A stretch of DNA of 64,000 nt from Bacteroidia bacterium (GTDB lineage Bacteria; Bacteroidota; Bacteroidia; UKL13-3): contig JBAYTR010000010.1 in the NCBI GenBank assembly GCA_041675505.1, positions 67,895-131,894 of the forward strand, given 5' to 3'. Under the pieces are notes generated by a model that was not told where the DNA came from, did no database searches, and worked only from the letters and a program-made list of their open reading frames with translations. The position numbers and the translations under genes are program-made. Every line of letters begins with the position of its first letter. Positions within the stretch are counted from its first letter, which is position 1. Positions 10,866-25,228 of the stretch are shown here, piece by piece.

Positions 10866-12704
10866 ATGTGTGGAATTGTAGCTTACATAGGTAAGCAGGA
10901 AGCTTACCCTATTCTTATTAAAGGACTTAAACGCCTGGAGTACCGCGGTTATGATAGTGCCGGAGTAGCACTGCTTAATGACGGGATAACGGTATATAAA
11001 AAAGCAGGGAAGGTTTCTGACCTGGAGCAGTCCGTAGGTGGTCAGGACACTACCTCTCACGTGGGCATAGGCCACACACGCTGGGCCACACACGGAGAGC
11101 CTAACGACCGCAACGCACATCCGCACCTTTCTCAGGATGGTGACTTGGCCATTATTCACAACGGTATAATCGAGAATTATGCGCCCTTAAAAGAAGAACT
11201 CATTAAGCGTGGCCACACGTTTAAAAGTGATACCGATACGGAAGTACTGGTGCACCTGATAGAAGACGTAAAGAAAAAAATGGAGGTTTCTTTACAAGAA
11301 GCCGTTCGTATTGCGCTCTCTGAAGTAGTGGGTGCATACGCCATTGTGGTGTTGTCTAAAAACGACAACAACATGCTCATCGGGGCACGCAAAGGCAGCC
11401 CCATGGTGGTGGGTATTGGCAAAGACGGGGAATACTTTATCGCCTCCGATGCTTCACCCATTATTGAGTACACTAAAAACGTTTATTACTTAGACGACAA
11501 CGAAATCGTTTACATCGAAAACGGGGAAATGACCGTAAAAACGATTGACAACGTGGTGCGCACACCATACATCCAGGAACTGGAAATGAACTTGGAGGCT
11601 TTGGAAAAAGGCGGATACGAGCACTTTATGCTCAAAGAAATTTACGAACAACCCCGTTCCATCATTGACAACTTTCGCGGACGCATTCGTTTAAACAACG
11701 CACAAATTGTGATGGCCGGAGTTGACCAGTTTGAACACAAGTTTAAAAACCTGCCCCGCATTCTTATTGTGGGTTGCGGCACCTCATGGCATGCCGGCCT
11801 GGTGGGTGAATACCTTTTTGAAGAGTTTGCCCGCATACCTGTGGAAGTGGAATACGCCTCAGAGTTTCGTTACCGCAATCCGGTGGTAAATGAAAATGAT
11901 TTTGTAATTGCTATTTCACAATCAGGCGAAACCGCAGATACGTTAGCGGCCATTCAAATGGCCAAAGAAAAAGGAGCTACTATTTTCGGGGTATGTAATG
12001 TGGTGGGCTCATCTATTCCAAGGGCTACACATGCGGGAGCGTACACACATGCCGGTCCGGAGATTGGTGTGGCTTCTACCAAAGCCTTTACGGCTCAGGT
12101 AACCGTTTTAACACTGATGGCTTTAAGCATAGCACAAAAACGCGGTACCATTACCCAAAGCCGAATGCGCGATGTACTTACTGAGTTGGAATCCATTCCA
12201 TCTAAGATTGAAAAAGTTCTGCAACTGAATGACTACATCAAAACCATAGCTGAGCAATACAAGGATGCGCGCAACTTCCTTTACCTCGGTCGCGGATACA
12301 ATTTCCCGGTGGCTTTGGAAGGTGCGTTAAAACTGAAAGAAATCTCTTACATACATGCTGAGGGTTATCCTGCTGCTGAAATGAAGCACGGCCCTATTGC
12401 GCTGATAGATGAAGAAATGCCGGTGGTTGTAGTAGCTACCAAAGACAGCATTTATGAAAAAGTAATCAGCAATATACAGGAAGTAAAAGCGCGCAAAGGA
12501 AAAGTAATTGCCGTGGTAACAGAGGGTGATGATAAGGTAAAAGGCATGGCCGATTACGTAATTGAAATACCTGAAGTGGAAGAATCGCTGGCCCCGCTGG
12601 TTACTACCATTCCGTTGCAACTGCTTTCATACCACATTGCCGTAATGCGTGGCTGTAATGTTGATCAACCCCGTAACCTGGCCAAGTCGGTAACGGTGGA
12701 ATAA
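10866..12704 (+). CDS. glmS: Glutamine--fructose-6-phosphate aminotransferase
   Basis: 612 aa. MCGIVAYIG (N-terminal nucleophile Cys), two SIS domains, C-terminal KSVTVE. Confidence 0.95.
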   Translation: MCGIVAYIGKQEAYPILIKGLKRLEYRGYDSAGVALLNDGITVYKKAGKVSDLEQSVGGQDTTSHVGIGHTRWATHGEPNDRNAHPHLSQDGDLAIIHNGIIENYAPLKEELIKRGHTFKSDTDTEVLVHLIEDVKKKMEVSLQEAVRIALSEVVGAYAIVVLSKNDNNMLIGARKGSPMVVGIGKDGEYFIASDASPIIEYTKNVYYLDDNEIVYIENGEMTVKTIDNVVRTPYIQELEMNLEALEKGGYEHFMLKEIYEQPRSIIDNFRGRIRLNNAQIVMAGVDQFEHKFKNLPRILIVGCGTSWHAGLVGEYLFEEFARIPVEVEYASEFRYRNPVVNENDFVIAISQSGETADTLAAIQMAKEKGATIFGVCNVVGSSIPRATHAGAYTHAGPEIGVASTKAFTAQVTVLTLMALSIAQKRGTITQSRMRDVLTELESIPSKIEKVLQLNDYIKTIAEQYKDARNFLYLGRGYNFPVALEGALKLKEISYIHAEGYPAAEMKHGPIALIDEEMPVVVVATKDSIYEKVISNIQEVKARKGKVIAVVTEGDDKVKGMADYVIEIPEVEESLAPLVTTIPLQLLSYHIAVMRGCNVDQPRNLAKSVTVE

Positions 12705-12739: not shown

Positions 12740-12764
12740 CAGCAGCTACAGTTGTTTAACCAAC
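12740..12764. repeat. Direct repeat, left copy (CAGCAGCTACAGTTGTTTAACCAAC)
   Basis: 23/25 identical to 13199..13223. On the minus strand it reads ..LVKQL*, a duplicate of the yjbR 3' end. Confidence 0.8.
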
Positions 12765-12906: not shown

Positions 12907-13100
12907 TAAGATTTTAATTTTTTGAGGATGGTGGATTTAGGAACAGTTTTTCCGGTCTTAACTTTATCCATTAAGGTTCCCATCATCAAATCCTCAAATT
13001 GCTCATCCTTTACACTCAGAACATCCGCCCCAAGTTTTTTGGCAAGTTCAGACAGGATTTTATTGCTCTGTTTGTCGGCCCTTATAAGAATTGCACTCAT
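12906..13100 (-). CDS. Small putative antitoxin (64 aa)
   Basis: Intact 64-aa ORF (MSAILIRADKQSNKILSELAKKLGADVLSV...) directly upstream of the toxin remnant and translationally coupled to it. The function is inferred from position only. Confidence 0.45.
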   Translation of the reverse strand: MSAILIRADKQSNKILSELAKKLGADVLSVKDEQFEDLMMGTLMDKVKTGKTVPKSTILKKLKS

Positions 13101-13198
13101 GATGTAAAGATATTAAAAATGATTATCAGCGAAAGACTTCAAACATTGTTAGCTAACGGTAGAGGAGAAAAACTCATCCATACTTTTTATTTCCGCTC

Positions 13199-13223
13199 CA
13201 GCAGCTAAGGTTGTTTAACCAAC
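13199..13223. repeat. Direct repeat, right copy (CAGCAGCTAAGGTTGTTTAACCAAC)
   Basis: Overlaps the last codons and the stop (13205-13207) of the MmcQ/YjbR gene. 23/25 identical to 12740..12764. Confidence 0.8.
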
Positions 13224-13546
13224 GCAGCCAGTTGAGCAGGTGCCACTTCGCAATAAGCTGAGGTGAGTGCAGCTGTAAACAGACGCTTGCTTACCTTACT
13301 TAGTTCCACCATGGTCCACCCTTGTTTGCCCCACTTATTGTTTACAGGATACACGATGCTTTTGTCAGCCAGTGAAAACAGGTCCTGATTTATTTCAGAT
13401 AATTTAAGGCAGGCCCTGTTGTTTTTTTCGTCACAGGTGGCAAATATTTTTCCCTTTACCCGAAAGGAAATTTTTTCAAAGTGGGCCGCTTCTGTAGCCT
13501 CAGGAAAAGAAAGTGCAATAGTTCGGAAGGCTGCTAAACTCACCAC
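13205..13546 (-). CDS. MmcQ/YjbR-family DNA-binding protein
   Basis: 113 aa. LSFPEATEAAHFEKISFRVKGKIFA...WTMVEL matches the YjbR/CyaY-like fold family as I recall it. Confidence 0.65.
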   Translation of the reverse strand: MVSLAAFRTIALSFPEATEAAHFEKISFRVKGKIFATCDEKNNRACLKLSEINQDLFSLADKSIVYPVNNKWGKQGWTMVELSKVSKRLFTAALTSAYCEVAPAQLAALVKQP

Positions 13547-13568
13547 GTGAGCAATGGTTCAGTGTGCA

Positions 13569-14180
13569 TTAAAAATTACCGTACGAGAGGAAGAACGAAC
13601 CGTTGGTAACTGTTTTCGACTGGGTACCTGTTTCGTTGTACAACTTACATGTGAAGGTGCCTTTTACATCCACATAGGTATCGCCAAAGATGCTGAACTG
13701 CTGTGTGCTGGTAATGTTAAACGTTGCCCCGCTTTGTGTACCGTTAATGCTGCTCCACACCTGTCCGGTGGCATCTACATGCAAAATTTCTACACCATCG
13801 GTAGTAGGGGTGGAATACATGTAATTTCCGGGAGCAAAATAGGCTACAAAATCAGCATCATCAGGGTAGGCACCCTGAAAGCTCATTTCACCCTTGTATA
13901 TGCTCACACCTCCTACGGTATTGTCAGAAAAAATATTGGAATAATAGTAAGCGGTAGAAAACTCAGGCAACGGGCGGGTTTCTTTACTGGAGCCGGCTGC
14001 TTGTTCAAAACCGTTTTTTCCGTCAGTGTAGGTGAGGGAACTGCCATCTACGGTAAGGGCAACATTATATCGGTTGGGAGTAGGAGTTGGGGTGGGTGTA
14101 ACGTTGTTATCATCATCGTCTTTTTTACAACCGGTAAACGCCAAAGCCAAAAGAGCTGCAGCAAAGAATAAATTTTTCAT
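13569..14180 (-). CDS. Hypothetical lipoprotein
   Basis: 203 aa with MKNLFFAAALLALAFTGC lipobox. No family recognised. Confidence 0.5.
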   Translation of the reverse strand: MKNLFFAAALLALAFTGCKKDDDDNNVTPTPTPTPNRYNVALTVDGSSLTYTDGKNGFEQAAGSSKETRPLPEFSTAYYYSNIFSDNTVGGVSIYKGEMSFQGAYPDDADFVAYFAPGNYMYSTPTTDGVEILHVDATGQVWSSINGTQSGATFNITSTQQFSIFGDTYVDVKGTFTCKLYNETGTQSKTVTNGSFFLSYGNF

Positions 14181-14357
14181 ACGTATTAAAATTTAGGTAA
14201 GACAAAAATATACTTTTTGGGATAAAAACCACAGGGAAGTGCAAGTTTTTTGAGGGAGCTGTTGTGTTGCCTTTCTGTTTGATAATTTGAAAGAGACCTT
14301 GTGGTTGCTGTTTGCTGAGCGTTTATTTAGGTAGGGTATTATTTTAGCTATAAGCTA

Positions 14358-14390
14358 CATAAAAGAAAAGCGTAGGCGCAACCTACGCTT
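14358..14390 (-). terminator. Rho-independent terminator closing the island operon
   Basis: Perfect 9-bp stem AAGCGTAGG/CCTACGCTT (14368-14376 / 14382-14390), followed on the minus strand by TTCTTTTAT. It lies 70 nt downstream of the permease stop at 14460. Confidence 0.65.
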
Positions 14391-14459
14391 AGGTTGACCT
14401 CCCATAATTCATACATGTGGCATAATGCTTTATTCAAATCATTATTTGCAAGCTGCTTT

Positions 14460-15242
14460 TTATTTCCATTTCAGAAGTGTCTTTTCAAAAAGATAAATGA
14501 TTCTCGAAAACAAAAGAGCCAAAAGAATTATGCAGATTACAGCAGCCAAAACCAACGAAACATCATAAGTTCCACCAGCTTTAAAAACCCTATGTCCCAA
14601 ACCTTCGTGGGCTGAAATAAATTCGGCAATGAAGGCACCAAGTAAAGCAAAACTAATGTTCAGTTTAAGCGAATTAAAAAGCCAAACCAATGAAGAAGGC
14701 ACGATTAGTTTTGAAAATATCTGCGTCCGTGATGCTCCAAAGGAGTGAAACAGTTTTATTTGTTGAACATCAACTTGTCTTGCACCTTCATAGGATTGAG
14801 TGATTGCAATTACTACTGTTGAAAGTGCAGCCATTATAACCTTTGCATACATACCAGTTCCAAACCACATTATCATCATAGGTGCAATGGAAAAAATTGG
14901 AATTGCTCCAATTGCAATGATGTAAGGTCTTGTCAAGTCAGCAACTCGTTTTGAATACCAAAGGGAAAGTCCGATTGCTGCACCGCAAATGTTGCCAATT
15001 AGAAAACCATAAATCGCTTCCTGTCCTGTAATAAAAATGTCCCTTGGTAAAATACCATTGGAGATGTTTTCAATCAGCGAATGAAAAACTTTGGATGGAG
15101 AAGAAAACAAAAAGAGTTTCTTTTCAGTAGTTGAAATTACAAACTGCCATAACAGCAAGAAAACTGTTAATGGCAACAAACCCAAAATGATACTTATGAT
15201 TTTTCTTTTCATTGTTCGTCTTGCTTTGGAAGTGATTGCCAC
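14460..15242 (-). CDS. ABC transporter permease, NitT/TauT (SsuC/TauC-like) family
   Basis: 260 aa, multi-TM, with an EAA-loop-like FGASRTQIFSKLIVPSSL. Overlaps the upstream ATPase gene by 34 nt. Confidence 0.8.
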   Translation of the reverse strand: MAITSKARRTMKRKIISIILGLLPLTVFLLLWQFVISTTEKKLFLFSSPSKVFHSLIENISNGILPRDIFITGQEAIYGFLIGNICGAAIGLSLWYSKRVADLTRPYIIAIGAIPIFSIAPMMIMWFGTGMYAKVIMAALSTVVIAITQSYEGARQVDVQQIKLFHSFGASRTQIFSKLIVPSSLVWLFNSLKLNISFALLGAFIAEFISAHEGLGHRVFKAGGTYDVSLVLAAVICIILLALLFSRIIYLFEKTLLKWK

Positions 15243-15970
15243 ATTTCAGTAAAGTATTTAGAAAACTTTTGGTCTTGCTTAACTGAAATTGGACTTCTCT
15301 TTTCTACATCAAAAGTTATCTGTAATTCCTTGAATGTTTCGTTTGGCTTGTGATTAAAAATTATTGTCCTATCGCTTACTGTTATTGCTTCATCAATGTC
15401 GTGAGTAATCAGTAAAACAGTTTTGTGATTCTCTTTTGACAAAGCATGTATTTGTGCTTGTAGTTCAAGCCTCGTGTTGTAATCAATTGCTGAAAATGGT
15501 TCGTCCAAAAGCATTATTTCAGAATCTAACATCAGTGTTCTGATAAGAGCAACTTTTTGTCTTTCACCGCCTGAAAGTTGTGAGGGATAACTATGAACCA
15601 AATTTGAGATGCCAAAGCGTTTCAAATACTGCATTACATTTTCTTTTGTTGAGGAATTTATTTTGCCTTGAATTTCAATACCGACAATTATGTTTTGATA
15701 AACTGTTTTCCAAGGGAGCAATAAATCCTTTTGCATCATGTATGCTATTGCAGTTCTCCTGTCTGCAATGTGGTCAAGTTTTACTTCTCCGCTATATTCA
15801 TTGTCAAGTCCGATTATCAAGTTGAAAAGAGTTGTTTTCCCACAACCATTTGGCCCCAAAATGGAAACAAACTCCCCTGAACGAATAGTGAGATTGAGGT
15901 TTTTAAAAACCTCAACGTTACCCGTTGGAGTGCTAAATGACTTGGTTATGTTTTTTAACTCAATGTTCAT
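15209..15970 (-). CDS. ABC transporter ATP-binding protein (SsuB/TauB-like)
   Basis: Walker A GPNGCGKTT, signature LSGGERQ, Walker B MLLDEPFSAID. Confidence 0.85.
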   Translation of the reverse strand: MNIELKNITKSFSTPTGNVEVFKNLNLTIRSGEFVSILGPNGCGKTTLFNLIIGLDNEYSGEVKLDHIADRRTAIAYMMQKDLLLPWKTVYQNIIVGIEIQGKINSSTKENVMQYLKRFGISNLVHSYPSQLSGGERQKVALIRTLMLDSEIMLLDEPFSAIDYNTRLELQAQIHALSKENHKTVLLITHDIDEAITVSDRTIIFNHKPNETFKELQITFDVEKRSPISVKQDQKFSKYFTEMWQSLPKQDEQ

Positions 15971-17514
15971 TAGTGCTTGACAATTTCCTTTTGTGCATTT
16001 GTAACTCTTGATTTTGCAAATGTCGCTTTAGAATAAATTTGATTAAATATTTTATAGCAATATGTTTCTTCTTTATCTCTCAAGGAAAATTGAGAATTGT
16101 TTTTTTGAATGTTTTGATATTCTTCTTCACTCAAATTGTTGTTTGCAAATTCATGTAGCAAACCCTTTCCTCTTTCAACGCCTCCAATTCCAGCCCCTTC
16201 CATCAAAGTCATTTTCTCTCTCGAATAAATGTAGTCAGGCAATAAATCTTTAAATGCTTCTCTCAAAACAAACTTTGTTGTTGTATCTCCTGTTTTTGTC
16301 TTTGCCACTTTTAAAGACGGATGAATGCTCAAAGCATATTCAACTAAAGTTCTGTCAAGAAAGGGTTCACGAACTTCAACGGCATATTTCATTCCTGTTT
16401 TGTCAACTCTCAAAAGTTGTGTCCTGTATAAATCGTTTAGAAGATTTTTAATTTCATTTTGAAATTCTGTTTCATCAGGAAGGGAAAGAAAATCACCATA
16501 GCCGCCAAATATTTCATCGCTGCCCTCGCCACACAAAACAATTTTGAAACCTTTGTCGTGTGCTAACTCTGCCAATTTCATTGAAAGTAAAGAGCCACGA
16601 ATAGGATTTGGTTCAAATGTCTCAATGGAATAAATCACATCAGGAACATTTTGAAGCAAATTTTCTTTGCTTGTTTTAATATGATGAAACTTCAAATTCA
16701 AATCATTGCAAAGTCGCTTTGCATAAATCACGTCTTCGCCTGAATCTTCACCGACAATTAAAGCTGTAACATCATTGTGATAACTGCAACACAATAAATG
16801 AACTATTGAACTGTCAATGCCACCACTTAAAAAAGTAGCAATAGGCAAATCTGTTTCAACTCTTTTCTTTACAGCCAATTCAACAAGTTCACGAACATTA
16901 TTTGTAATTGTGCTTACTGAATCAGTATTCCATTTTGTGCTTGGCGTTTTATAATACTGGAAAACTCCTTCATTGGTTATGTAGTGTGCTGGTTTAAGTT
17001 CTTCAAATGTTTCTACTTCCAAATCAGTAAAGGATTTCATTTCAGAAGAAATATAAACTACATTCTCACTCTTGCAGTAGAAGAATGGTTTCACTCCAAA
17101 AAAATCTCTTGCTCCGAAAAACTTATTTTGAACGGAATCATAAATTAGAAATGCAAACATTCCTTCTAACTGCTGCAAGAAATTTATTCCGTGTTCTTCA
17201 TAAAGATGAACCAAAACTTCTGTGTCGCAATCTGAAATAAACTTGTGTCCTTTCATTTGCAATTCTGATTTCAAATTTTTGTAGTTGTAAATCTCACCGT
17301 TAAAAACAACTCCTATTGTTTTGTTCTCATTGAAAAAAGGTTGTGTGCCATTTGGTCTGTCAACTATTTTAAGGCGAACACTTCCTAAGATTGAATTTCC
17401 TATTTGAACTTGTTTAGGTGCAGTATCTCCCCGATGCTCAATTTTTTTGAGCATAAACTCCATTTCTGTTTTGCCTTTTGGAGTAGGATTAATAATTGCT
17501 GCGATACCACACAT
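15970..17514 (-). CDS. Asparagine synthase (glutamine-hydrolysing)-family enzyme, AsnB-like
   Basis: 514 aa. MCGIAAII (class II amidotransferase Cys2) plus PP-loop FLSGGIDSS. Its stop and start overlap the ATPase gene by 1 nt. Confidence 0.8.
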   Translation of the reverse strand: MCGIAAIINPTPKGKTEMEFMLKKIEHRGDTAPKQVQIGNSILGSVRLKIVDRPNGTQPFFNENKTIGVVFNGEIYNYKNLKSELQMKGHKFISDCDTEVLVHLYEEHGINFLQQLEGMFAFLIYDSVQNKFFGARDFFGVKPFFYCKSENVVYISSEMKSFTDLEVETFEELKPAHYITNEGVFQYYKTPSTKWNTDSVSTITNNVRELVELAVKKRVETDLPIATFLSGGIDSSIVHLLCCSYHNDVTALIVGEDSGEDVIYAKRLCNDLNLKFHHIKTSKENLLQNVPDVIYSIETFEPNPIRGSLLSMKLAELAHDKGFKIVLCGEGSDEIFGGYGDFLSLPDETEFQNEIKNLLNDLYRTQLLRVDKTGMKYAVEVREPFLDRTLVEYALSIHPSLKVAKTKTGDTTTKFVLREAFKDLLPDYIYSREKMTLMEGAGIGGVERGKGLLHEFANNNLSEEEYQNIQKNNSQFSLRDKEETYCYKIFNQIYSKATFAKSRVTNAQKEIVKH

Positions 17515-17518
17515 TTTA

Positions 17519-18322
17519 TTATTTTTGTTCTTCTTTATTAAAATTTGAAAACCAAGGTCTGCTTCTTATTCCTTTACGAAAAGAGTAAATCTGTAAACTC
17601 GGAAGGTCGGGGGCAATCAATTCTTTTTCTTCATCCGATGTGTATGTGAGAAAAACATTTTGAAAAAAATTCTTTTCTACATACTGCTTTTCAATTTGAT
17701 TCATTGTAATGTAAGCATATGCCGATTCATCAGTTGAATTAAAACGCAAGTCGCCAAAAATTTGATTGTTTGAATATCTGTAAGAATGTTTACCTGCTGA
17801 TTTTTTTAAAAGTTCAAATGATTCTCTACCTTTTAAAAACTCTGGTATGTTATGACTTCCATTCTCATTTATAATTGCATTGATTAATGCATTCATGTCT
17901 TTTAAGTGATGTGATTTTGCAAAAGGCATTAGCACTTCGGACATGAGAACATGTGTGTAATTGAATTCATTTACAACGTTTCTTATCCCTTTGAAATAGC
18001 TTTTGTAATCTTCGGGCTTATAGCCATTAAGCATTGCATGTGTGTCAGTAAAAATTAATGTTAGCTGAGCATCCAATTTGTAATGCTTTTCAATAACTCG
18101 CAGAAAACCGAAAAGATTTAGCAACGCATCAAAGTCGTATTTGTCGGGGTACTTTTTATCGGATGCGCCCCAATATGAAATGAAACGAATATATTTCTTG
18201 TTATGCTTTACTCTTTCATTAACATACTTATCTAACTCCGCAATTTGTTTCTTGCGAACCTCAATCTTTTTTGCTGCTAAAAAAGAGCCGATTGTTTTTC
18301 CGTTTCGCAAATTGCTATTCAT
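17519..18322 (-). CDS. Hypothetical 267-aa protein; possible remote DIT1/PvcA (isonitrile synthase)-like fold
   Basis: The coding call rests on its tight operon position. The function is tentative. YIRFISYWGASDKKYPDKYDFDALLNLFGFLRVIEKHYKLDAQLTLIFTDTHAMLNGY parallels the remembered DIT1_PvcA pattern (PAFPxKS..PDxAE..L..L....I...Y.PGA...I.SDG.VF.DL). LQIYSF...RPWF parallels RLSIH...TPWH. Confidence 0.4.
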   Translation of the reverse strand: MNSNLRNGKTIGSFLAAKKIEVRKKQIAELDKYVNERVKHNKKYIRFISYWGASDKKYPDKYDFDALLNLFGFLRVIEKHYKLDAQLTLIFTDTHAMLNGYKPEDYKSYFKGIRNVVNEFNYTHVLMSEVLMPFAKSHHLKDMNALINAIINENGSHNIPEFLKGRESFELLKKSAGKHSYRYSNNQIFGDLRFNSTDESAYAYITMNQIEKQYVEKNFFQNVFLTYTSDEEKELIAPDLPSLQIYSFRKGIRSRPWFSNFNKEEQK

Positions 18323-20189
18323 TGCGATAAAAATATTTGCTTTCGTGTTTTAGTTTAAACAATTCCCGTGAAGACAAAAAAACAATAACTAAACAAATTA
18401 AGAAACAATAAAAAATATAATTGCCATATTTAATTGTATGTAAAACTTCTTTGTATTCTATAGGGTCGCTATTCGGAACAACTTCTTGCCTTGCAAATTC
18501 ATGTTTCAATTCATCTAATTTTGGAGTTTTAGGATGTAAAATGTGAAACATACTTGATGTAATCTCAAGTAAAATAAATAACGAGCCTATAAAGTAAAGT
18601 AACGTGGGTTTTCTTACATGCTTCCATAATGAACTTTCTATAAACAGTCGAAAGTTTTCAACTTTATTAGTGAACAGTTTTAAGAGATATAAAAAGGGCA
18701 ACAATGGTGTTAAAAATATTCGCCAACCTGCCCACTTTTTTGTGTGTAACGTTTTTCTTTCAAGTTCAAAATAATGCTTTTCATTTTGACGATATTCAGC
18801 TAACAAATCATCAGCTACGAACAAACTGTAATCAATAGTTTGAGGAACAGGTATGCCCTCAGCCCTATATCGCAAAAGCGTTAATTCTTTCAAATCATCT
18901 TTAATCGGATTAGTTTTTGAGTAATACAAATTGCCAATATCTCTCCACTCTCTTAATCTATCTACATAGTATTTAAGAATTTCTTCAAGTGAAAATTTCT
19001 CTTTTTTATTATTGATAAGAAACTGGATATAACTTTTAATAGTTTCATCTGCGATTAAGAGGTTAAGCAATTCGTCTTGGGTATCATCATCATATTTGAG
19101 TTTTGTTTTCAGAAAGTGAATTAAGCCCGTTGTATCGCTTTTCTTTAGATACGAATGAATTCTGTGTAAATTTTTATCAATGCCGTAGAGCAACCCTTTA
19201 AGTTTTTCTGAATTTTCAGGTGCATTATTACCTAAGATGCCCGTAAACATGAAACTTTGATCGTTGTCATACGCTAAGTTTTCTAATTCAATAATTTTTT
19301 TGTTTGCTTCTCCATTATGCTTATCAAGTAAGAAATCAATACTTATAAAATCACATGAGAATGAGACAGAATTATTGCAATAGTCATCGTTATCTACTTC
19401 TTCGTCAATGGTTCCATTATTTTTATATGTTTTTTTACTTACTTTACGAAGTTCATATCCAAAATCTTTTCTTTCTTCTACCAATGTAGATGTAGATGTT
19501 TTGTATTGCTCATAATAGATATGACCAATACAAAATCCTGTTGAAGGAGTATCATAACAGATGATTGATTGAGTAATATTTTCTTTTCCGTATTGAGACG
19601 GAAAATTTTGTGGATTCTTATATAATCTACCTAAGTCATTAGACGAACTAGTTAAATCTCCACTTCCTACAGCCAGAAAAGCAATTTTTGAAACTAATCC
19701 ACCAATAACCTTTGTATTGGTTTTTAATATTTTCTCTTTAAAGAGGTTTACCCCATTCTCTTTAAAGACTAAATTGTTACTATTGTCAACATCTAAACAT
19801 TGTGAAAGATTGAGATTAAACTCTTTATTACAAATATCTTTCTTTGTTTTAATGTCAAGCAAGTCCTGAAACTTTTTAAGTTCTGCTTGTAGCTTGGTGG
19901 CATCGCAATGGTTCAAATAGATAAGATGAGATGGGTCGCAAATGGCTGCGTCTGCTAAACCAAGCAAAACGGAAAAGGTTGCAAATCCATCACCCTTTAA
20001 TTTCTTGCTCTGGTCAAACCTGAAATCATTTTTTGTTCCAATTATAACTACTTCTAATTCCGAAAATGGTGTGTCATGGAAATCATTGCCATAGTATGCA
20101 ACATAAAATGGAAGGTATAATACCGTGTCAGTTGATACGGCAATTTCAAGTTTGTCTTTTGTTCGTATGGAAGAAAATCCTGAATCCAT
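18315..20189 (-). CDS. 624-aa membrane-anchored protein: N-terminal type-2 binding-protein-like domain with no signal peptide, plus three C-terminal TM helices
   Basis: N-terminal VLYLPFYVAYYGNDF and FSVLLGLADAAICDPSHL align with YLIYLPFYIAQEKGFF and ATVLKGEAQFGIGDPVF of the adjacent binding-protein gene. Hydrophobic helices fall at about aa 487-506, 529-551 and 590-607 (nt ~18369-18731). Confidence 0.5.
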   Translation of the reverse strand: MDSGFSSIRTKDKLEIAVSTDTVLYLPFYVAYYGNDFHDTPFSELEVVIIGTKNDFRFDQSKKLKGDGFATFSVLLGLADAAICDPSHLIYLNHCDATKLQAELKKFQDLLDIKTKKDICNKEFNLNLSQCLDVDNSNNLVFKENGVNLFKEKILKTNTKVIGGLVSKIAFLAVGSGDLTSSSNDLGRLYKNPQNFPSQYGKENITQSIICYDTPSTGFCIGHIYYEQYKTSTSTLVEERKDFGYELRKVSKKTYKNNGTIDEEVDNDDYCNNSVSFSCDFISIDFLLDKHNGEANKKIIELENLAYDNDQSFMFTGILGNNAPENSEKLKGLLYGIDKNLHRIHSYLKKSDTTGLIHFLKTKLKYDDDTQDELLNLLIADETIKSYIQFLINNKKEKFSLEEILKYYVDRLREWRDIGNLYYSKTNPIKDDLKELTLLRYRAEGIPVPQTIDYSLFVADDLLAEYRQNEKHYFELERKTLHTKKWAGWRIFLTPLLPFLYLLKLFTNKVENFRLFIESSLWKHVRKPTLLYFIGSLFILLEITSSMFHILHPKTPKLDELKHEFARQEVVPNSDPIEYKEVLHTIKYGNYIFYCFLICLVIVFLSSRELFKLKHESKYFYRNE

Positions 20190-20191
20190 AT

Positions 20192-21205
20192 TTAATTTGT
20201 CTTGGTATCTGAAATAGATTTTTCGGCAAAGGAATTATCTACTGCATCTGATGTTGGTTTCATTTCCTTCATGTCGCCTATATCAACTCTTACTTGTATC
20301 GCTTTCTGCCAAGCTTCATCACTCATTACAGCATGGTCTGGAATTGTTTTATCTGCTACCATTCTTTTTACAGCATTTGCAACAACTGCTTTGTCAAGGT
20401 TGGGGAAAAGTTTTGCTGCAATTTCTGCCGTTCCTGCTTCATCTGTGTGGCAATACTGTAATGCCTTTTCAATTGCGTTTACAAATTTTTGAACAGTTTC
20501 CTTATTGGCGTTTATGTATTCCTCTGTCGTTGTTAAGCCAGTGAAAGCAAATCTTCCATAAAACTGCGGTGAGGAGTAAACAACTTTGTAACCTTTACTT
20601 TCAGCTATTGATGTTCCTGGTTCTAAGTCCATCGCAATATCGGCACTTCCATTTTCAAGTAAAGCCAACTGTGAACCAATTGGGGCTTGAACAATGATTG
20701 TGTTTTTTAATAAATCTCCTCCTTTCATGAGTGTCTTTTTCATCAAAGCGTAATTTGTTGACGGGTCGGGGAATGTTCCAACTTTCAAACCAGCCAAATC
20801 ACCAGGCTGTTCTATGGTTTTGATGTTATCCTTGTTTGTTACACCCCAAATTGTTACTCCGTCAACGATGGAACCAATTACTTTTCCTTTTGCTCCTTTC
20901 TCTCGTGATATGGCAGTGAATACAGGGTCGCCAATTCCAAATTGTGCTTCGCCTTTCAAAACGGTTGCAAAAACCTGGTCGTCATTACCTGAAAACTTTA
21001 CAGTAATTTCAAGTCCTTCGTCTTTGAAAAAACCCTTCTCCTGTGCAATGTAGAAAGGTAGGTAAATTAGATACTTCTCTTGTCCCCACTGCGCTACTAT
21101 TACTTTGGTGACTTCGGTGGTTTTTGGCTTTTCAGTGTTGCATGAATTGCATCCTCCCAAAATGATTGTGAGAACCAGTAATGCTGCTAAAACTATTTTA
21201 TTCAT
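20192..21205 (-). CDS. ABC substrate-binding lipoprotein, NMT1/THI5/SsuA-like
   Basis: 337 aa with MNKIVLAALLVLTIILGGC lipobox and LPFYIAQEKGFFKDEGLEITV, typical of NMT1/SsuA-type binding proteins. Confidence 0.75.
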   Translation of the reverse strand: MNKIVLAALLVLTIILGGCNSCNTEKPKTTEVTKVIVAQWGQEKYLIYLPFYIAQEKGFFKDEGLEITVKFSGNDDQVFATVLKGEAQFGIGDPVFTAISREKGAKGKVIGSIVDGVTIWGVTNKDNIKTIEQPGDLAGLKVGTFPDPSTNYALMKKTLMKGGDLLKNTIIVQAPIGSQLALLENGSADIAMDLEPGTSIAESKGYKVVYSSPQFYGRFAFTGLTTTEEYINANKETVQKFVNAIEKALQYCHTDEAGTAEIAAKLFPNLDKAVVANAVKRMVADKTIPDHAVMSDEAWQKAIQVRVDIGDMKEMKPTSDAVDNSFAEKSISDTKTN

Positions 21206-21261
21206 TTTGACGGTTTTAATTGCTATTTTATATTGTAAAGATAGTTATTCACTCGATAAAT

Positions 21262-22788
21262 TCAACAATTGCTTCCCTTCTCAAAAAGTGTTTTCCAAAG
21301 GAATGTATCAAACAATTGTGCTAAGTTGTAAGTCAAAAACAAAAATAAAGTTCCTCCCAATAGTATTGCCAAAAACCATTTCCAAAGGTTGCTGTAAATT
21401 TTGAGTTTGCCATCAATGAATGCTACATCAGCATTGAATTCTTTATCATTATTAAGGATTCTCTGAATGTCTTCTTTTTCTAAAAGGTCAGTGTAGCGTT
21501 CTTTCAAATTTGTGTAGCTGTCAACGAATCTTTTGCGTTGCTCTTTCACTTCCCACTTTGCTACTAAGTAATAAAGGAATGAGCCGAACAAAAAAACAAT
21601 TGAAAGAACTGCTGTGTCAAGTGTAAACACATTTACAAAATCTCCATTGCCCAAAACTTTTATTGCGATTGCAGAAAAGTAAAAAGTGATTAGCGCCAAA
21701 GAACTTTTTTGAAAACCACTTGCAAATGTTTCAATGACTTTGTTTGCTCTGTTGTTGAAGTCAAGCAACTGGTCAGAAATTTTATTTCTGATTTCAATGT
21801 ATTGCTTGATGTTCTGCTTCTCGTAAACTTTGTAACTTGATTGAATAGATTGAAATGGATGCCCTTTCAATTCTAATTCACCACTATTTTCAAAGTGAAG
21901 TGAAATAATGTTTCTGGCTAAACCAATTTTATCATTGAGGTTTCCGCCACAATAAACCCAATTGTATATATTGAAATATTCTTTCGTTCCATCTATCGGC
22001 AATGCTTTTACATCAACTTTTCCTTTGATTGATTTATAACCGTTGATTTTAAATTCAAGTTCGTTGGCTTTTAGCGAAGTAATGTCAAACAAATAAACAA
22101 CGGAAAGCACAACAGCATAATGATTGAAAAGCAAACACAGCTTGCTGTGTTTTGCATTTTCAATTTGCAACTGAAAATCATCAGGCGTTAAGTTGTGTTC
22201 TTCAATGTTGGTGTAATTACTTGCTGAAAGAATGCTATCAAGGCGTTTATGCCTGTCAGCAAATGTTTGAGTAGGTGTGGTAGCACCTATTTGTGTAAAG
22301 AAAATATTTGCTGTATTGAATGGCTTGTCAAGATTCAACACTTTGAAGTTTACAAAAGGTGTGTTTGATAAAACACGATTGAAAACCGCATACGCTTCTG
22401 CTACTGACAAACTTTCAAGTGTTGCTGTGAAGATTTCTAAATCATATATAGAAATATTGTTTGAAATATTTCCTTTAGTGATTTTGAAGGTTGCTGTGAT
22501 TGGTTCGCCTTCCTGATGCAAATATTCCTTATCAAGTTCAGTTTTGAAATCGGTAAAATTTGAACTGGTTGAATAAAATGATTTTGGGTCGGCTTCTCCA
22601 AATTTGATTGTGAATGTTAATTGGTCGTTAGGCTCTAAAAAGTTGTAGGCGGTTTGAATGCTTGCAACCTCTGTCGATGAAAAGTTTGTTGCTGACAATT
22701 CACAAATAAATTCTTTGTCATTCTCTGAAACAGTTGTTTGAGAATAAGTAGAGAAAAAAGAGTGAATGAATTTATCAGCAAATTGCAT
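21262..22788 (-). CDS. Hypothetical 508-aa protein: ~360-aa unrecognised soluble domain plus a C-terminal 2TM-linker-1TM anchor
   Basis: No signal peptide. Hydrophobic helices fall at about aa 362-380, 390-411 and 467-490 (nt ~21319-21705). The start ATG overlaps the upstream stop (TAATG at 22786-22790). Confidence 0.5.
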   Translation of the reverse strand: MQFADKFIHSFFSTYSQTTVSENDKEFICELSATNFSSTEVASIQTAYNFLEPNDQLTFTIKFGEADPKSFYSTSSNFTDFKTELDKEYLHQEGEPITATFKITKGNISNNISIYDLEIFTATLESLSVAEAYAVFNRVLSNTPFVNFKVLNLDKPFNTANIFFTQIGATTPTQTFADRHKRLDSILSASNYTNIEEHNLTPDDFQLQIENAKHSKLCLLFNHYAVVLSVVYLFDITSLKANELEFKINGYKSIKGKVDVKALPIDGTKEYFNIYNWVYCGGNLNDKIGLARNIISLHFENSGELELKGHPFQSIQSSYKVYEKQNIKQYIEIRNKISDQLLDFNNRANKVIETFASGFQKSSLALITFYFSAIAIKVLGNGDFVNVFTLDTAVLSIVFLFGSFLYYLVAKWEVKEQRKRFVDSYTNLKERYTDLLEKEDIQRILNNDKEFNADVAFIDGKLKIYSNLWKWFLAILLGGTLFLFLTYNLAQLFDTFLWKTLFEKGSNC

Positions 22789-23825
22789 TAGCTATTGCCG
22801 TTTTGTCTGTTGCTGAAATATTGATAGCCTTGTTCCGATTTGATTTTCACATATCTTGTTCCGTCTGCATCTTTTTCCGCTGTGATTATTGTTTCAAGGT
22901 TCGGAATATCTTCTTTCAAGTGCAAATCAATTTGGCTTGTCAAGGGGATAGTGTTTAGAAATTTTGCCCTAATCTTTGCCTTTACAATCGTGAACTGTTC
23001 GTCAAAAGGTGTTCTTGGTTTTGATGGCAATTGTCGGATTTGAGTTTTGATTTCTGCAACATCAAGGTTGGAATCGAAGGGAGTGTAGTTTCCAATTGCT
23101 GTGTCCAAATACTCTTGCATGTCAAAATTGTCGTTGGCTCTGAAATAGCGAACGGTGCTATTACGCAAATGCAAATAATCTTGTGGGTGTTTCTTTTTCA
23201 GTTTTGTAAATATGCCTTTGTCAATTGCTTCAAAAGCATTTTCTGTATTGTCCTCGTCTGAATAAACTTTGGTGAGTTCTAAAAAATCTTTCCACCAATA
23301 ATGAGAAAGGTTTGGATTGGTGTCATACACCAAAACATTAGTTACAGTTTGGTCGCTGTTTAGCGAACAAACAAATGCTTTGAAAACCTTTTTCTTTAAT
23401 GGAAGTCCTCTTGAAATAGTAAAATTTATTTCGTTTAAGAAATCGCTGTGGTCTGCTTTACAGATTACAAGTTTGTTGACGCTGTTTTCTGTTACCAATG
23501 CTTGAACAACAATTCCCTTTTGAATCTCAACTCCAAGTTTCAACATTTTTGCTTGTGCCTCTTGCTCTTTCTTCAAAAGTCGTGTTACTATTGTTGATGC
23601 AATTGCAGGAAATTCTTCACCTGCAATAATTTTCGTAATCTGTCCTCTTACTTCTGTTGTGTCGCTGTCAAACTTGAAGTTTCTACCACTGCTGCCTGTC
23701 GTAATGAGATTTACCAGTCCTTGCAAGTATGTGTTGAAGTCAGCACCATAAATTGATTGCTCAATTGATTCAACCGCTTGTTCATGAATGTCAACCTTAA
23801 ATATTTGTATGGCTGTTATGTCCAT
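22788..23825 (-). CDS. NdpA/YejK (Pfam NA37)-like nucleoid-associated protein
   Basis: The ORF track starts at GTG 23891, but ATG 23825 (MDITAIQIFKVDIH...) is the likelier start. The layout (EEFPAIASTIVTRLLKKEQ, IQKGIVVQALV, VICKADHSDFL, LVYDTNPNLSHYWWKDFLEL) matches my recollection of the NA37 family. No HMM search was run. Confidence 0.5.
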   Translation of the reverse strand: MDITAIQIFKVDIHEQAVESIEQSIYGADFNTYLQGLVNLITTGSSGRNFKFDSDTTEVRGQITKIIAGEEFPAIASTIVTRLLKKEQEAQAKMLKLGVEIQKGIVVQALVTENSVNKLVICKADHSDFLNEINFTISRGLPLKKKVFKAFVCSLNSDQTVTNVLVYDTNPNLSHYWWKDFLELTKVYSDEDNTENAFEAIDKGIFTKLKKKHPQDYLHLRNSTVRYFRANDNFDMQEYLDTAIGNYTPFDSNLDVAEIKTQIRQLPSKPRTPFDEQFTIVKAKIRAKFLNTIPLTSQIDLHLKEDIPNLETIITAEKDADGTRYVKIKSEQGYQYFSNRQNGNS

Positions 23826-24303
23826 GTTGTATATTTTAAAATGTGAAAAATTGTTGGTTAACGGGTGCTGATAAAGCGTTGGCGATTGCACACTTTTGAT
23901 TTCGCCTTTGGGTTGGCTTGTACGTGAGCTGCAAATGCAAATGTGTACTGGTGTTTTTTGTTTTCCAGCTGAAGCGTTTACAATTCAAGGAGGTGTCGTT
24001 GGTGTCAAGTTTTGTCAAAAAGTTCATTTTTCATCTGTCAGTTTAATGTTAACACTGTTGCCATAGGGTTTCCGGCAGCTTTTTTATATGCGAAGGTTTG
24101 CCTGGTTTTGTAAATATATCAATTTGCTCATAACTCTTCAAAAAGGGGGTTGTTTTTTGAATACTTTGTGATGTAAATCGCTTTGAAAATCTTGGCCAAT
24201 TAGGCCACGGGAATTTGCAAGACAGGTGAACAGGTTAGGTTGCATAGCATATTGGTTTTCAACGGCAAATTAGAAGGTTTTTTATTACTGTGCAAATTTA
24301 TTA

Positions 24304-24410
24304 TTGTGCTCGCATTGGGAGACTGCTTCTCCCGATAGCCATCGGGTCTCGGTGGCATTGCTTTTTGGGGTGCCGCGCTAGGCTCAATAAGACGTTTCTT
24401 TTTTGAAGAG
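24304..24410. repeat. Intergenic repeat unit, copy 1 (starts TTGTGCTCGCATTGGGAGACTGC, ends GACGTTTCTTTTTTGA)
   Basis: Both ends are shared with the unit at 24514..24612. The interior contains nested hairpins (GAGAC...GTCTC and CCCGAT/ATCGGG). Confidence 0.5.
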
Positions 24411-24513
24411 AGATAGACTTTAAGCACATCGTCTTTGCGATGAACTTCTGGGTAGTGTGTTGGGTAGTCAAGAAGCAAACTTTAGTTCAGGGAAGCAACC
24501 TCCTATTACAACT

Positions 24514-24612
24514 TTGTGCTCACATTGGGGGACTGCCACGGGCTCTCATCACACAGGCTAAGCTTCGCCCTCGCAGTGACGTTGGTTTTGACAGTGACGT
24601 TCTTTTTTGAGT
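24514..24612. repeat. Intergenic repeat unit, copy 2 (starts TTGTGCTCACATTGGGGGACTGC, ends GACGTTCTTTTTTGA)
   Basis: 21/23 identity with copy 1 at the 5' end and a conserved 3' end. AGTGACGTT occurs twice internally. Confidence 0.5.
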
Positions 24613-24627
24613 GCCTTTGAAGTAATG

Positions 24628-25035
24628 TTACTTCATCTCCTGGCACAACTCAATCAGTACTCCGTTGGTGGCTTTGGGGTGCAGGAAACAAATGAGTTTA
24701 TTATCAGCACCGCGCTTGGGTGTTTCATGGATAAATTGAAATCCGGCTGCTTCTAAACGGGTTATTTCTGCTTCAATGTCTTCTACATCAAATGCAATGT
24801 GGTGTATGCCCTCGCCTTTTTTCTCAATAAATTTTGCAATGGCACTGTCGGCTGAGGTGGCTTGCAGCAACTCTACTTTGCTTTCTCCGGTTTTAAAAAA
24901 AGCGGTGATTACGTGTTCGCTTTCCACGCCCTCTTCTTTGTAGCAGGGTGTTCCCAAAAGTGCGGCAAACAGGCTTTTGGATGCTTCTATATCTTTAACG
25001 GCTATGCCCAGGTGTTCAATCTTGCGTAAATTCAT
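24628..25035 (-). CDS. Methylmalonyl-CoA epimerase / VOC (glyoxalase)-family protein
   Basis: Likely start MNLRKIEHLGIAVKD at 25035. HLGIAV...GEGIHHIAFDV...LHPKATNGVLIELCQ is the typical epimerase pattern. Confidence 0.75.
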   Translation of the reverse strand: MNLRKIEHLGIAVKDIEASKSLFAALLGTPCYKEEGVESEHVITAFFKTGESKVELLQATSADSAIAKFIEKKGEGIHHIAFDVEDIEAEITRLEAAGFQFIHETPKRGADNKLICFLHPKATNGVLIELCQEMK

Positions 25036-25195
25036 GCAGCAAAGTAACCTCAAAAAATAAAAACCCGCCAAGGTTTACTTTCCCCGGCAGGGAAGAAGCC
25101 CGTAAACGCTCAGTAGTTAAGAGGTAAAATAACCGTTCCGTCTACAGGATTTAACCTGAAAACAGGGCAGGAGTGGATATTATTTAGAATTGTTC

Positions 25196-25203
25196 TAACT
25201 TTG
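25196..25203 (+). promoter_or_regulatory. Bacteroidota -7 box (TAACTTTG)
   Basis: Exact TAnnTTTG match 26 nt upstream of the ATG at 25229. Confidence 0.4.
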
Positions 25204-25228
25204 CATACATTTTGAATAGCACGAACGC

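Follow-up and report, generated by a model that had tools for sequence, protein, structure and literature searches.

The window, a 64,000-nt stretch of a Bacteroidia bacterium contig, carries on its minus strand (14460-21205) a six-gene operon that combines a nutrient-type ABC importer with three proteins of the cytoplasm: one of 624 aa that has a binding fold and is tethered to the membrane, an AsnB paralogue, and a 267-aa protein, here called X, which is a relative of the isonitrile synthases not described before. The three cytoplasmic proteins probably modify the small molecule that is imported. We tentatively read the whole as an import-and-convert module, in which the cargo would be captured in the cytoplasm, X would modify it and the AsnB paralogue would amidate it. 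As the sequence-only reading had said of this gene combination, a search of described pathways gave no match for the cassette.

Layout, conservation and mobility of the cassette

All six densely spaced ORFs of the operon first outlined in the sequence-only reading were recovered at the same coordinates, and its family assignments (NMT1, GATase_7 with Asn_synthase, ABC_tran and BPD_transp_1) stood, together with the MCGIAAII and SGGIDSS motifs. The features are as follows:

20192-21205, minus strand: SBP gene, first gene of the operon, 337 aa
18315-20189, minus strand: gene of the 624-aa protein, TauA/NMT1-fold domain plus TM hairpin
17519-18322, minus strand: X gene, 267 aa, PvcA/IsnA/DIT1 superfamily
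15970-17514, minus strand: AsnB-like gene, 514 aa, GATase_7 plus Asn_synthase
15209-15970, minus strand: ABC ATPase gene, 253 aa, ABC_tran
14460-15212 (ATG start) or 14460-15242 (GTG start), minus strand: permease gene, BPD_transp_1
14368-14390, minus strand: terminator-like hairpin, then a T-rich tail (consensus scan and sequence)
21206-21261, minus strand: 56-nt intergenic region 5′ of the SBP gene, candidate operon promoter

The tight junctions support a single co-transcribed unit, in agreement with the co-translated unit argued for earlier. The ATPase gene overlaps the AsnB gene by 1 nt and the permease gene by an ATGA. The junctions were as first described except at the permease, whose start is most likely ATG 15212 and not GTG 15242, because the former gives the ATGA overlap with the ATPase stop and a product of 250 aa (260 aa from the GTG), as in the homologues, which are 249-252 aa long with a 4-nt overlap. 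The hairpin at 14390-14368, about 70 nt 3′ of the permease stop, is probably the end of the operon, with the reservation that terminator-like sites are consensus matches only, which occur in the region as often as expected from shuffling. The consensus scan found nothing of the sigma-70 type on the minus strand of 21206-21261; TATCTTTA in this region resembles what we take to be the Bacteroidota -7 element, TAnnTTTG, and the region is a possible operon promoter. Alternatively, the operon may be reached by read-through from the upstream 508-aa gene.

The operon lies within a low-GC island of about 10 kb (~14200-24200), with GC of 0.30-0.39 against 0.43-0.47 around it. This island had escaped the first reading, as had the fact that the two island genes upstream of the operon are outside the conserved cassette. 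A 367/508-aa gene pair in the island has a weak SLATT-like match.

The co-occurrence search proposed at the outset found the identical six genes, in identical order, on 10 or more unrelated contigs whose flanks differ, the hosts being Bacteroidota MAGs and one Zixibacteria MAG (X identity 39%), and in a Saprospiraceae MAG the cassette is reordered with all six functions kept. The X and 624-aa genes are strictly conserved beside the other cassette genes. Since the cassette recurs with unrelated flanks, and since its cytoplasmic parts are fused in other lineages, the six-gene arrangement is far above chance. The flanks contain mobile and defence-type genes, namely SLFN_AlbA_2/HATPase_c_4, an AEP-TOTE helicase and Dcm+Vsr+HATPase_c_3+SNF2, as well as RadC, ParE, PIN, DUF3368/UPF0175 and transposases; the cassette was not found in the viral contigs and plasmids searched. 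The operon is rare, horizontally transferred and mobile.

The importer and the membrane-tethered 624-aa protein

The SBP is predicted from its sequence to be a lipoprotein of the NMT1/SsuA/TauA class that binds substrate in the periplasm. It matches Pfam NMT1 with 106 bits (GA 20.5) and also NMT1_2, and carries an LGGC lipobox as well as an N-terminal hydrophobic segment (1-24). Its nearest solved sequence is 3qsl, which has no known ligand, followed by THI5/ThiY/thiamin SBPs. An importer of this class is completed by a BPD_transp_1 permease (99 bits; five hydrophobic segments) and an ABC_tran ATPase (114 bits), whose top NCBIfam matches are of the SaoA/TauB/SsuB type and far under their cut-offs. 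Every equivalog test for a named system failed, the bit scores against cut-offs being 77/347 for SsuC, 64/342 for TauC, 114/295 for SaoP, 179/360 for SaoA, 33/300 for SaoX and 69/163 for SsuA_fam, and no Rfam family, including the TPP riboswitch, was detected in 13000-25500. The identities SsuABC, TauABC, SaoXPA and ThiXYZ were rejected on these scores, with ThiXYZ also lacking its TPP riboswitch. The SBP fold and Pfam family, the permease and ATPase families and the lipoprotein nature of the SBP are shared with TauABC, SsuABC and ThiXYZ, whereas the cassette operon additionally encodes two enzymes and a cytosolic protein with the binding fold and a membrane tether.

The 624-aa protein contains a signal-less TauA/NMT1-fold domain (~1-330), a helical region (~330-480), two strong TM helices (529-551 and 585-613) that form a membrane hairpin, and, at the C-terminus, a basic tail that is conserved (KYFYRNE); its structure model is of moderate confidence (pLDDT 74). 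The PBP-fold enzymes THI5, MqnA/D and DszB are among its fold matches, though sequence similarity to them is negligible. There is precedent for a transporter that carries its periplasmic binding-protein fold a second time on the cytoplasmic side, namely the C-terminal NrtA-like regulatory domain of the NrtC/CmpC ATPases (PDB 9UAI). Here, in contrast, the domain belongs to a separate protein with its own TM hairpin, unfused to the ATPase, and in other lineages cytosolic NMT1-fold domains are fused to enzymes.

X, the AsnB paralogue and their fusions

X belongs, as a divergent member, to the PvcA/IsnA/DIT1 isonitrile-synthase superfamily, has a class-I aaRS-like Rossmannoid fold and is presumed to be an enzyme. 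In the fold test it showed the three-dimensional fold of PvcA/IsnA. Its direct match to PF05141 (17.9 bits, E = 0.0024) is below the curated threshold (GA 26.4), such weak matches occur in only 22 of 91 superfamily members, and NCBIfam, including NF045653, gave no match. When the 91-sequence alignment of the X superfamily was compared by hhalign with five plasmid-borne annotated ICS domains, a probability of 96.9% and E = 1.6e-10 were obtained over 259 columns, and the X profile matched 9dhm at E = 1e-4; these profiles indicate that X is homologous to ICS domains across its full length. PvcA/IsnA enzymes transfer C1 from ribulose 5-phosphate to the amine of an amino acid, and the resulting isonitrile is readily hydrated to the N-formyl compound. 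Of the ICS motifs tested (FPxKSPN, SDGH, RLSIHPQ and TPWH), X shares a D-x-H, a Tyr and P-W, whereas KSPN, SIHPQ and the final His of PWH are replaced, suggesting that X may catalyse a different chemistry. X further differs from PvcA/IsnA/DIT1 (PF05141; PDB 3E59, 9DH4 and 9DHM) in its low identity (~13-15%), its own motifs YWGxGxK, TDTHAxLNG and (K/R)PWF, the lack of a PvcB/IsnB-type Fe/2OG partner in the cassette, and partners (AsnB, NMT1-fold, PxpB/C) not known for ICS. X was also considered as a cyclodipeptide synthase, an identity that calls for such an enzyme as best structural match together with aminoacyl-tRNA use, and this candidate was rejected.

The AsnB paralogue has the Ntn-glutaminase and PP-loop synthetase architecture of E. 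coli AsnB (1CT9) and human ASNS (6GQ3), with Cys1, SGGxDS, E348, D351/E352 and K449 in common. Its class-II glutaminase domain carries the Cys1 nucleophile in MCGIAAII (GATase_7, 137.6 bits), and its synthetase domain keeps SGGIDSS, CGEGSDE and REKMTLMEGAG (PP-loop and equivalents of E348/K449). It passed TIGR01536 (354 bits, cut-off 267) and failed the equivalog NF006949 (406 bits, cut-off 499). E. coli T322/T323, presumably aspartate-site residues, are replaced by N/P, and D384 by Q, in all cassette AsnBs, with H at the D384 position in some X-fused AsnBs. These TT and D sites are retained in four housekeeping AsnBs and altered consistently in all cassette and X-fused AsnBs, as in ETFEPNPIRGS for ETYDVTTIRAS and TQLLR for YDCAR. 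In the human enzyme, D400 (E. coli D384) contributes to the pocket in which the charged amino group of the substrate sits (PMC6748925). The changes would fit a substrate with an altered or absent amino group; the retained E348/D351/E352 leave room for an aspartate-like substrate, or even plain asparagine synthesis.

In a small NJ tree (497 columns, with four housekeeping outgroups only), of the kind called for in the sequence-only reading, the cassette and X-fused AsnBs separated from the E. coli, Parabacteroides, Latilactobacillus and Ilyobacter AsnBs. The AsnB of the window is 31-32% identical to these housekeeping enzymes, 37-43% to the X-fused AsnBs and 51-80% to those of other cassettes, and the cassette AsnB, unlike the housekeeping one, is always linked to X. 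The score below the NF006949 cut-off, the separate clade and the changed synthetase-site residues support a putative specialised glutamine-dependent amidotransferase distinct from housekeeping AsnB, as first suspected. The accompanying analogy to beta-lactam synthetase and lasso cyclase was not supported, for the enzyme, whose glutaminase domain is intact, is far nearer to true AsnB (1ct9, E = 3e-61) than to beta-LS (E = 7e-13).

The X superfamily, which is unannotated, comprises 427 cluster representatives. Among 148 superfamily representatives, 11 AsnB+X, two AsnB+NMT1+X, eight NMT1+X, 25 ANL+X (with an adenylating enzyme of the ANL type) and two X+PxpB-like fusions were found, the triple fusion reading correctly in genetic code 25. 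The window protein nearest to the fused cytosolic NMT1 domains is the periplasmic SBP (E = 2e-17), which ties the ligand class of the transporter to the enzymes. In Alphaproteobacteria, X stands beside a transporter (EamA or TauE/SafE) and a PxpB/PxpC-like ATP-dependent carboxyl/amide-activating enzyme. No transporter genes were found in the neighbourhood of the fusion proteins of CPR bacteria, suggesting that the enzymes can function without import.

A proposed import-and-convert module and its alternatives

The import-and-convert proposal starts from the observed gene content, order, conservation, mobility, folds, fusions and AsnB site substitutions. It is suggested by the packed junctions, the recurrence in at least 10 loci, the AsnB/NMT1/X fusions, the PvcA/IsnA fold of X, the signal-less TauA/NMT1 fold of the 624-aa protein, and the alphaproteobacterial loci, where X is again beside a transporter and a carboxyl/amide-activating enzyme. 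The TauA/NMT1-class importer (SBP, permease and ATPase) would bring in a small polar molecule, which the 624-aa protein, with the same binding fold, would capture or present at the inner face of the membrane. X would then modify the cargo, most plausibly at a primary amino group, and the AsnB paralogue would adenylate a carboxylate and convert it into a carboxamide with ammonia channelled from glutamine. We strongly infer that the three cytoplasmic proteins share one target molecule, of the ligand class of the SBP family. What X does chemically, which substrate is involved and how the steps are ordered would follow only by analogy, as would the conjecture that the 624-aa protein hands imported cargo to the enzymes.

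A different product is conceivable, as X and AsnB might use an amino acid of the cytosol to make a small amide, isocyano or N-formyl, which would leave the cell, bind a metal (copper or zinc, for instance) and be retaken as a complex by the SBP importer. The homology of X to isonitrile synthases speaks for such a metallophore, isocyanides are known as chalkophores, metal transporters occur in ICS clusters, and exporters (EamA, TauE/SafE) are present in alphaproteobacterial X loci. Moreover, in CrmA an ICS is joined to an NRPS-like adenylating enzyme (PMC5974471), an architecture paralleled by the ANL+X and AsnB+X fusions. We nevertheless consider it unlikely, since exporter, metal-responsive regulator and recognisable box are all absent from the cassette, X does not conserve the ICS-specific motifs, and an enzyme-fused cytosolic NMT1 domain suits substrate capture more than product re-uptake; to our knowledge, NMT1/TauA-class SBPs are also not the usual class for metallophore uptake. 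The 624-aa protein could instead be a regulator, whose cytosolic TauA/NrtA-like domain senses the internal level of cargo or product and gates the importer as in NrtC/CmpC. Only one part would have another role, and import-and-convert could hold at the same time, but it appears quite unlikely, because NMT1-fold domains are fused to X and to AsnB+X where no transporter genes adjoin, which points to a role in chemistry and not in transport control, and because THI5, MqnA/D and DszB are enzymes. The signal-making enzyme with a ligand-sensing membrane effector, raised speculatively before, found no positive support, and no output domain could be recognised in the 624-aa protein.

The flanks rich in mobile and defence-type genes, the 367/508-aa pair and the low GC of the cassette relative to its host would suit a conflict or defence module that makes or imports a small molecule against phages or competitors. 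Such islands also gather accessory metabolic cargo, however, and the cassette contains no nuclease, protease, pore-forming or NADase effector and is missing from the viral contigs and plasmids searched. In PADLOC-DB v2, the SBP, 624-aa protein, X, AsnB and permease had no match at E ≤ 0.01, only the ABC ATPase matching generic ATPase models (mad3 and others), and we know of no defence system with an SBP-dependent importer; this explanation is improbable. Ordinary sulfonate, taurine or HMP uptake beside a housekeeping asparagine synthetase and two irrelevant genes, the outcome that the sequence-only reading had named as its own refutation, did not emerge and is disfavoured as highly improbable. 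The AsnB-like enzyme does pass TIGR01536 with all catalytic residues kept, and the transporter subunits are similar to SsuABC/TauABC. Yet the enzyme stands in a separate clade and shares about 31% identity with Bacteroidales and E. coli AsnB, as against 37-43% with X-fused AsnBs, all transporter scores are far under the equivalog cut-offs with no TPP riboswitch, and the cassette, which is rare and low in GC, is a mobile insert. The two proteins first called unrecognised always accompany the rest, are fused to AsnB/NMT1 elsewhere, and are now placed by fold, as PvcA/DIT1-like and as TauA/NMT1 plus hairpin. With import-and-convert as the preferred reading, the cassette points to an uncharacterised enzyme family and pathway.

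Layout, genomic setting and distribution of the six-gene cassette

The ORF list reproduced exactly the six minus-strand genes that the sequence-only reading had described, and the families assigned to them (NMT1, GATase_7 with Asn_synthase, ABC_tran and BPD_transp_1) were all confirmed with Pfam and NCBIfam. The genes, in operon order, are the following:

20192-21205, minus strand, substrate-binding lipoprotein (SBP), 337 aa
18315-20189, minus strand, membrane-tethered NMT1-fold protein, 624 aa
17519-18322, minus strand, protein X, 267 aa
15970-17514, minus strand, AsnB-like enzyme, 514 aa
15209-15970, minus strand, ABC ATPase, 253 aa
14460-15242, minus strand, permease, 260 aa as listed

From the SBP gene onward, the first junction is a gap of 2 nt, the second an overlap of 8 nt, the third a gap of 4 nt and the fourth an overlap of 1 nt. 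At the last junction, ATG 15212 is the most likely permease start rather than the listed 15242, since it forms a canonical ATGA overlap with the stop codon of the ATPase gene and gives the 250-aa size of all homologues. Some 70 nt downstream of the permease stop there is a terminator-like hairpin. The operon is housed in a low-GC island of about 10 kb (about 14200-24200), with a GC content of 0.30-0.39 vs 0.43-0.47 outside. Neither a tRNA gene nor att-like direct repeats were found at the island ends, and no Rfam elements, riboswitches included, were found around the operon.

Several other features were observed nearby. A 25-nt direct repeat (92% identical, 12740-12764 and 13199-13223, 459 nt apart) lies between glmS and a 113-aa gene. 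A 203-aa lipoprotein of the Riean_0653 family with a Mfa1-like signal (13569-14180, minus) is overlapped almost wholly by a 205-aa plus-strand ORF (13554-14171), which is probably spurious. Within the same island as the cassette, a 367-aa and a 508-aa gene (21262-23891, minus) overlap each other by 1 nt; the 367-aa protein has a weak NA37 nucleoid-associated match (E 1.7e-4), and the 508-aa protein, with TM helices at its C-terminus, weakly matches the PADLOC model RTasSLATT (E 0.005). The pair was rejected as part of the cassette: it is missing beside the cassette at all other loci, and the counterparts in the same position at locus L010 (364 and 519 aa) are not homologous. It could represent a conflict module of two genes in its own right.

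The two proteins that had been left unrecognised form very small families, with 24 and 15 matches among 5.8 billion clustered proteins. In a pattern-based scan of 185,579 species-representative genomes, the cassette type was detected in MAGs of Bacteroidia, Cellulophaga and Zixibacteria (one each), and one Saprospiraceae MAG had the genes in another order (SBP, TM-NMT1, ATPase, permease, X, AsnB). Wherever a locus had sufficient context, the order SBP, 6xx-aa protein, X, AsnB, ATPase and permease is constant, while the flanks are wholly different, containing transposases, an integrase fragment, SLFN_AlbA_2/HATPase_c_4, an AEP-TOTE helicase, Dcm+Vsr+HATPase_c_3+SNF2, RadC, MacB, and ParE/PIN/UPF0175 toxin-antitoxin genes. 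The same order, the different flanks and the rare occurrence show that the cassette is a rare, self-contained six-gene unit that moves horizontally. It was looked for on viral contigs and plasmids and found on none. An optional seventh gene, absent from the window, is present in three divergent cassettes (L005 5244-6020, L009 2438-3259 and L014 7544-8428); its product has 258-294 aa, two N-terminal TM helices and weak DUF5919 similarity; the three copies are mutually homologous (E 1e-13 to 6e-77). In L005 and L009 this gene (258/273 aa) follows X; it was considered as an X paralogue and rejected at 17-18% identity.

Protein X as a divergent isonitrile-synthase relative

A confident AF2 model of X (pLDDT 90, pTM 0.89, built on 23 homologues) had as its top Foldseek matches the IsnA structures 9DHM and 9DH4 and PvcA, with a TM of about 0.6. 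On PF05141, the Pfam family of isonitrile synthases (ICS), X scored only 17.9 bits vs a gathering threshold of 26.4, and the NCBIfam search gave no match. A profile search of 1.84 billion representatives retrieved 427 relatives at E<=1e-3, just nine of them at E<=1e-30, so the cassette-type X is a rare sub-branch. A profile built from cassette X proteins only gave no match to the PDB; the 91-sequence superfamily profile matched 9DHM (E 1e-4) via a common D-x-H motif, and weak PF05141 matches were observed in 22 of the 91 members. When the superfamily was aligned by hhalign with five annotated ICS domains taken from plasmid records, a probability of 96.9% (E 1.6e-10, 259 columns) was obtained, a result that needed the ICS sequences trimmed to the domain, the untrimmed ORFs giving 5.7%.

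Corresponding motifs of the X superfamily and of ICS
YWGxGxK in X; (L)PxFPxKSPN in ICS
TDTHAxLNG in X; CSDGHVFxDL in ICS
Y108 in X; conserved Tyr in ICS
FLTY in X; RLSIHPQ in ICS
(K/R)PWF in X; TPWH in ICS

On the fold, profile and hhalign evidence together with these motifs, X is a genuine, very divergent member of the isonitrile-synthase superfamily. Some ICS signatures are kept and others are lost, so isonitrile formation may or may not be its chemistry.

The domain architecture of the superfamily was compared across its 148 best representatives.

Approximate counts of X architectures among the 148 best representatives
standalone X, ~100
ANL (AMP-binding adenylating enzyme) + X, ~25
AsnB + X, ~11
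NMT1 + X, ~8
AsnB + NMT1 + X, ~2
X + PxpB-like (CT_C_D), ~2

The ANL part of the fusions is closest to oxalate/malonate-CoA ligases and FadD13, and the NMT1 domains fused in cytosolic proteins are nearer to the periplasmic SBP of the window (E 2e-17) than to the 624-aa protein. One AsnB-NMT1-X triple fusion (L092 4676-7768) comes from an organism in which UGA encodes glycine (code 25); translated with table 25 it regains CGEGADELFGGY, where the database protein P0122 has W in place of the conserved G. The 197-aa ORFs that follow the AsnB-NMT1-X and AsnB-X fusions were examined as counterparts of the membrane module at the C-terminus of the 624-aa protein and rejected, since they resemble neither it nor one another. 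The fusions argue strongly that a single molecule is acted on by X, the AsnB paralogue and an NMT1-fold ligand-binding domain, and they also indicate that this molecule falls within the class of ligands bound by the SBP.

In about 70 alphaproteobacterial genomes (Methylobacterium, Bradyrhizobium, Xanthobacteraceae and others), the neighbours of standalone X are PxpB/PxpC-like genes together with EamA or TauE/SafE transporters, and distant members are found in cultured Methylobacterium, Bradyrhizobium, Blastochloris and Methylocella. The alphaproteobacterial standalone homologues (L015-L084, e.g. L059 9749-13384) form a large clade at 23-33% identity; their PxpB/PxpC-like neighbours are carboxyltransferase subunits, and a GGDEF-EAL protein is often near.

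The AsnB paralogue, the transporter and the tethered binding fold

The MCGIAAII nucleophile and the SGGIDSS PP-loop noted earlier in the AsnB-like protein were both found. It aligns full-length with E. coli AsnB (E 3e-61), is far more remote from beta-lactam synthetase or CarA (E 1e-11 to 1e-13), and passed TIGR01536 but failed the AsnB equivalog model. Cys1, the PP-loop, GEGSDE (E348/D351/E352 in E. coli AsnB numbering) and the K449 equivalent are kept as in E. coli AsnB, whereas T322/T323 are changed to N/P (ETFEPNPIRGS) and D384 (human D400) to Q, or to H in some fusions. These changes occur in every cassette and X-fused AsnB, and TT and D are kept in all four housekeeping AsnBs. In human ASNS, the pocket for the charged amino group is formed by E364, D367 and D400 (PMC6748925). 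In a small NJ tree, the cassette and X-fused AsnBs group apart from the four housekeeping AsnBs, those of E. coli, Parabacteroides, Latilactobacillus and Ilyobacter; identity to the AsnB of the window is 31-32% for these four, 37-43% for X-fused AsnBs and 51-80% for AsnBs of other cassettes. No second AsnB was found in the 64-kb window, where the only other Ntn-amidotransferase is glmS (glutamine-fructose-6-phosphate aminotransferase, 10866-12704, plus), 3 kb from the cassette, which explains a weak second AsnB-like tblastn match. Plasmid-borne "asparagine synthase-related" genes (L098 3998-5530 and L099 3998-5434) were also observed in apparent secondary-metabolite contexts, the Streptomyces copy adjoining a halogenase and an NRPS, and the Pseudoalteromonas copy adjoining RibA and an arylamine N-acetyltransferase; at ~35% identity to the cassette AsnB they are no more distant from it than some X-fused AsnBs, but they lack the EPN/TQ signatures.

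The SBP has a lipoprotein-type N-terminus, and its nearest solved relative is 3QSL, with no assigned ligand, followed by THI5/ThiY/thiamin binders. All transporter subunits fall far under the equivalog cut-offs of SsuABC, TauABC and Sao, the last being a selenoprotein-associated ABC system unrelated to the cassette. Thiamine/HMP salvage, prompted by the ThiY/THI5 similarity, is disfavoured by the low scores and by the lack of a TPP riboswitch and of TenA/YlmB-type genes. A sulfonate cargo such as cysteate or taurine, suggested by the TauA fold and by the alphaproteobacterial TauE neighbours, was considered; it is pure speculation and was not adopted.

The 624-aa protein had correctly been called a binding-fold paralogue with a TM anchor. 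It has no signal peptide, two strong TM helices by hydropathy (529-551 and 585-613) and a conserved basic tail ending in KYFYRNE, so the predicted topology has both the tail and the binding-fold domain facing the cytoplasm. In the Saprospiraceae variant, two TM helices at the N-terminus precede the NMT1 domain, and the predicted topology is unchanged.

Proposed function and significance

The best-supported reading, held tentatively at a little short of an even chance, is that the cassette is an import-and-convert module. The importer would supply a small polar compound, the tethered cytosolic binding fold would capture or sense it, X might modify it, at a primary amine by analogy, and the AsnB paralogue would amidate a carboxylate via an acyl-adenylate. 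That the specific chemistry is isonitrile/N-formyl plus amide appears rather unlikely. Also doubtful is a broader proposal, that X is a new ICS-descended family always accompanied by a carboxylate- or amide-activating partner (AsnB, ANL or PxpBC), and the cassette the first "import, N-functionalise, amidate" metabolon. Here an amine-bearing acid would be imported and handed by the tethered binding protein straight from the ABC permease to the enzymes, yielding an isocyano or related N-C1 carboxamide.

Among the other explanations, a metallophore made by the cassette and then re-imported is unlikely. A purely regulatory 624-aa protein, which would be compatible with the import-and-convert module, is quite improbable. 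The island context is suggestive of a conflict or defence function, which we nevertheless consider highly unlikely. Ordinary sulfonate uptake beside a housekeeping AsnB is barely credible. The label "sulfonate or taurine system" should be avoided for the transporter, as should "housekeeping asparagine synthetase" for the AsnB gene.

No family model, defence-system model or publication on this gene set or the X superfamily was found. All parts of the cassette come from known superfamilies, so it is not categorically new; as a lead it is well defined, pointing to an uncharacterised enzyme family and an unusual transporter-associated architecture. The X superfamily is an unannotated branch of the isonitrile-synthase superfamily, its 427 cluster representatives having no Pfam or NCBIfam model, and the repeated fusions to AsnB, ANL and NMT1-fold domains show its partners clearly, making it tractable for enzyme discovery. 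Cultured alphaproteobacterial hosts of distant members offer experimental entry points, and the fusions offer single-polypeptide versions for biochemistry. A second copy of the binding-protein fold, tethered to the membrane, lies at the cytoplasmic face of an ABC importer, an architecture that could reveal channelling or sensing of imported substrates. Isonitrile and related metabolites bear on metal acquisition, virulence and antibiotic activity; no literature linking ICS-like proteins to AsnB or NMT1 was found, and an AsnB-coupled isonitrile-type route would be new chemistry. If the metabolon proposal is true, the N-C1 carboxamide class and its pathway logic would be new to Bacteroidota, CPR bacteria and Alphaproteobacteria.
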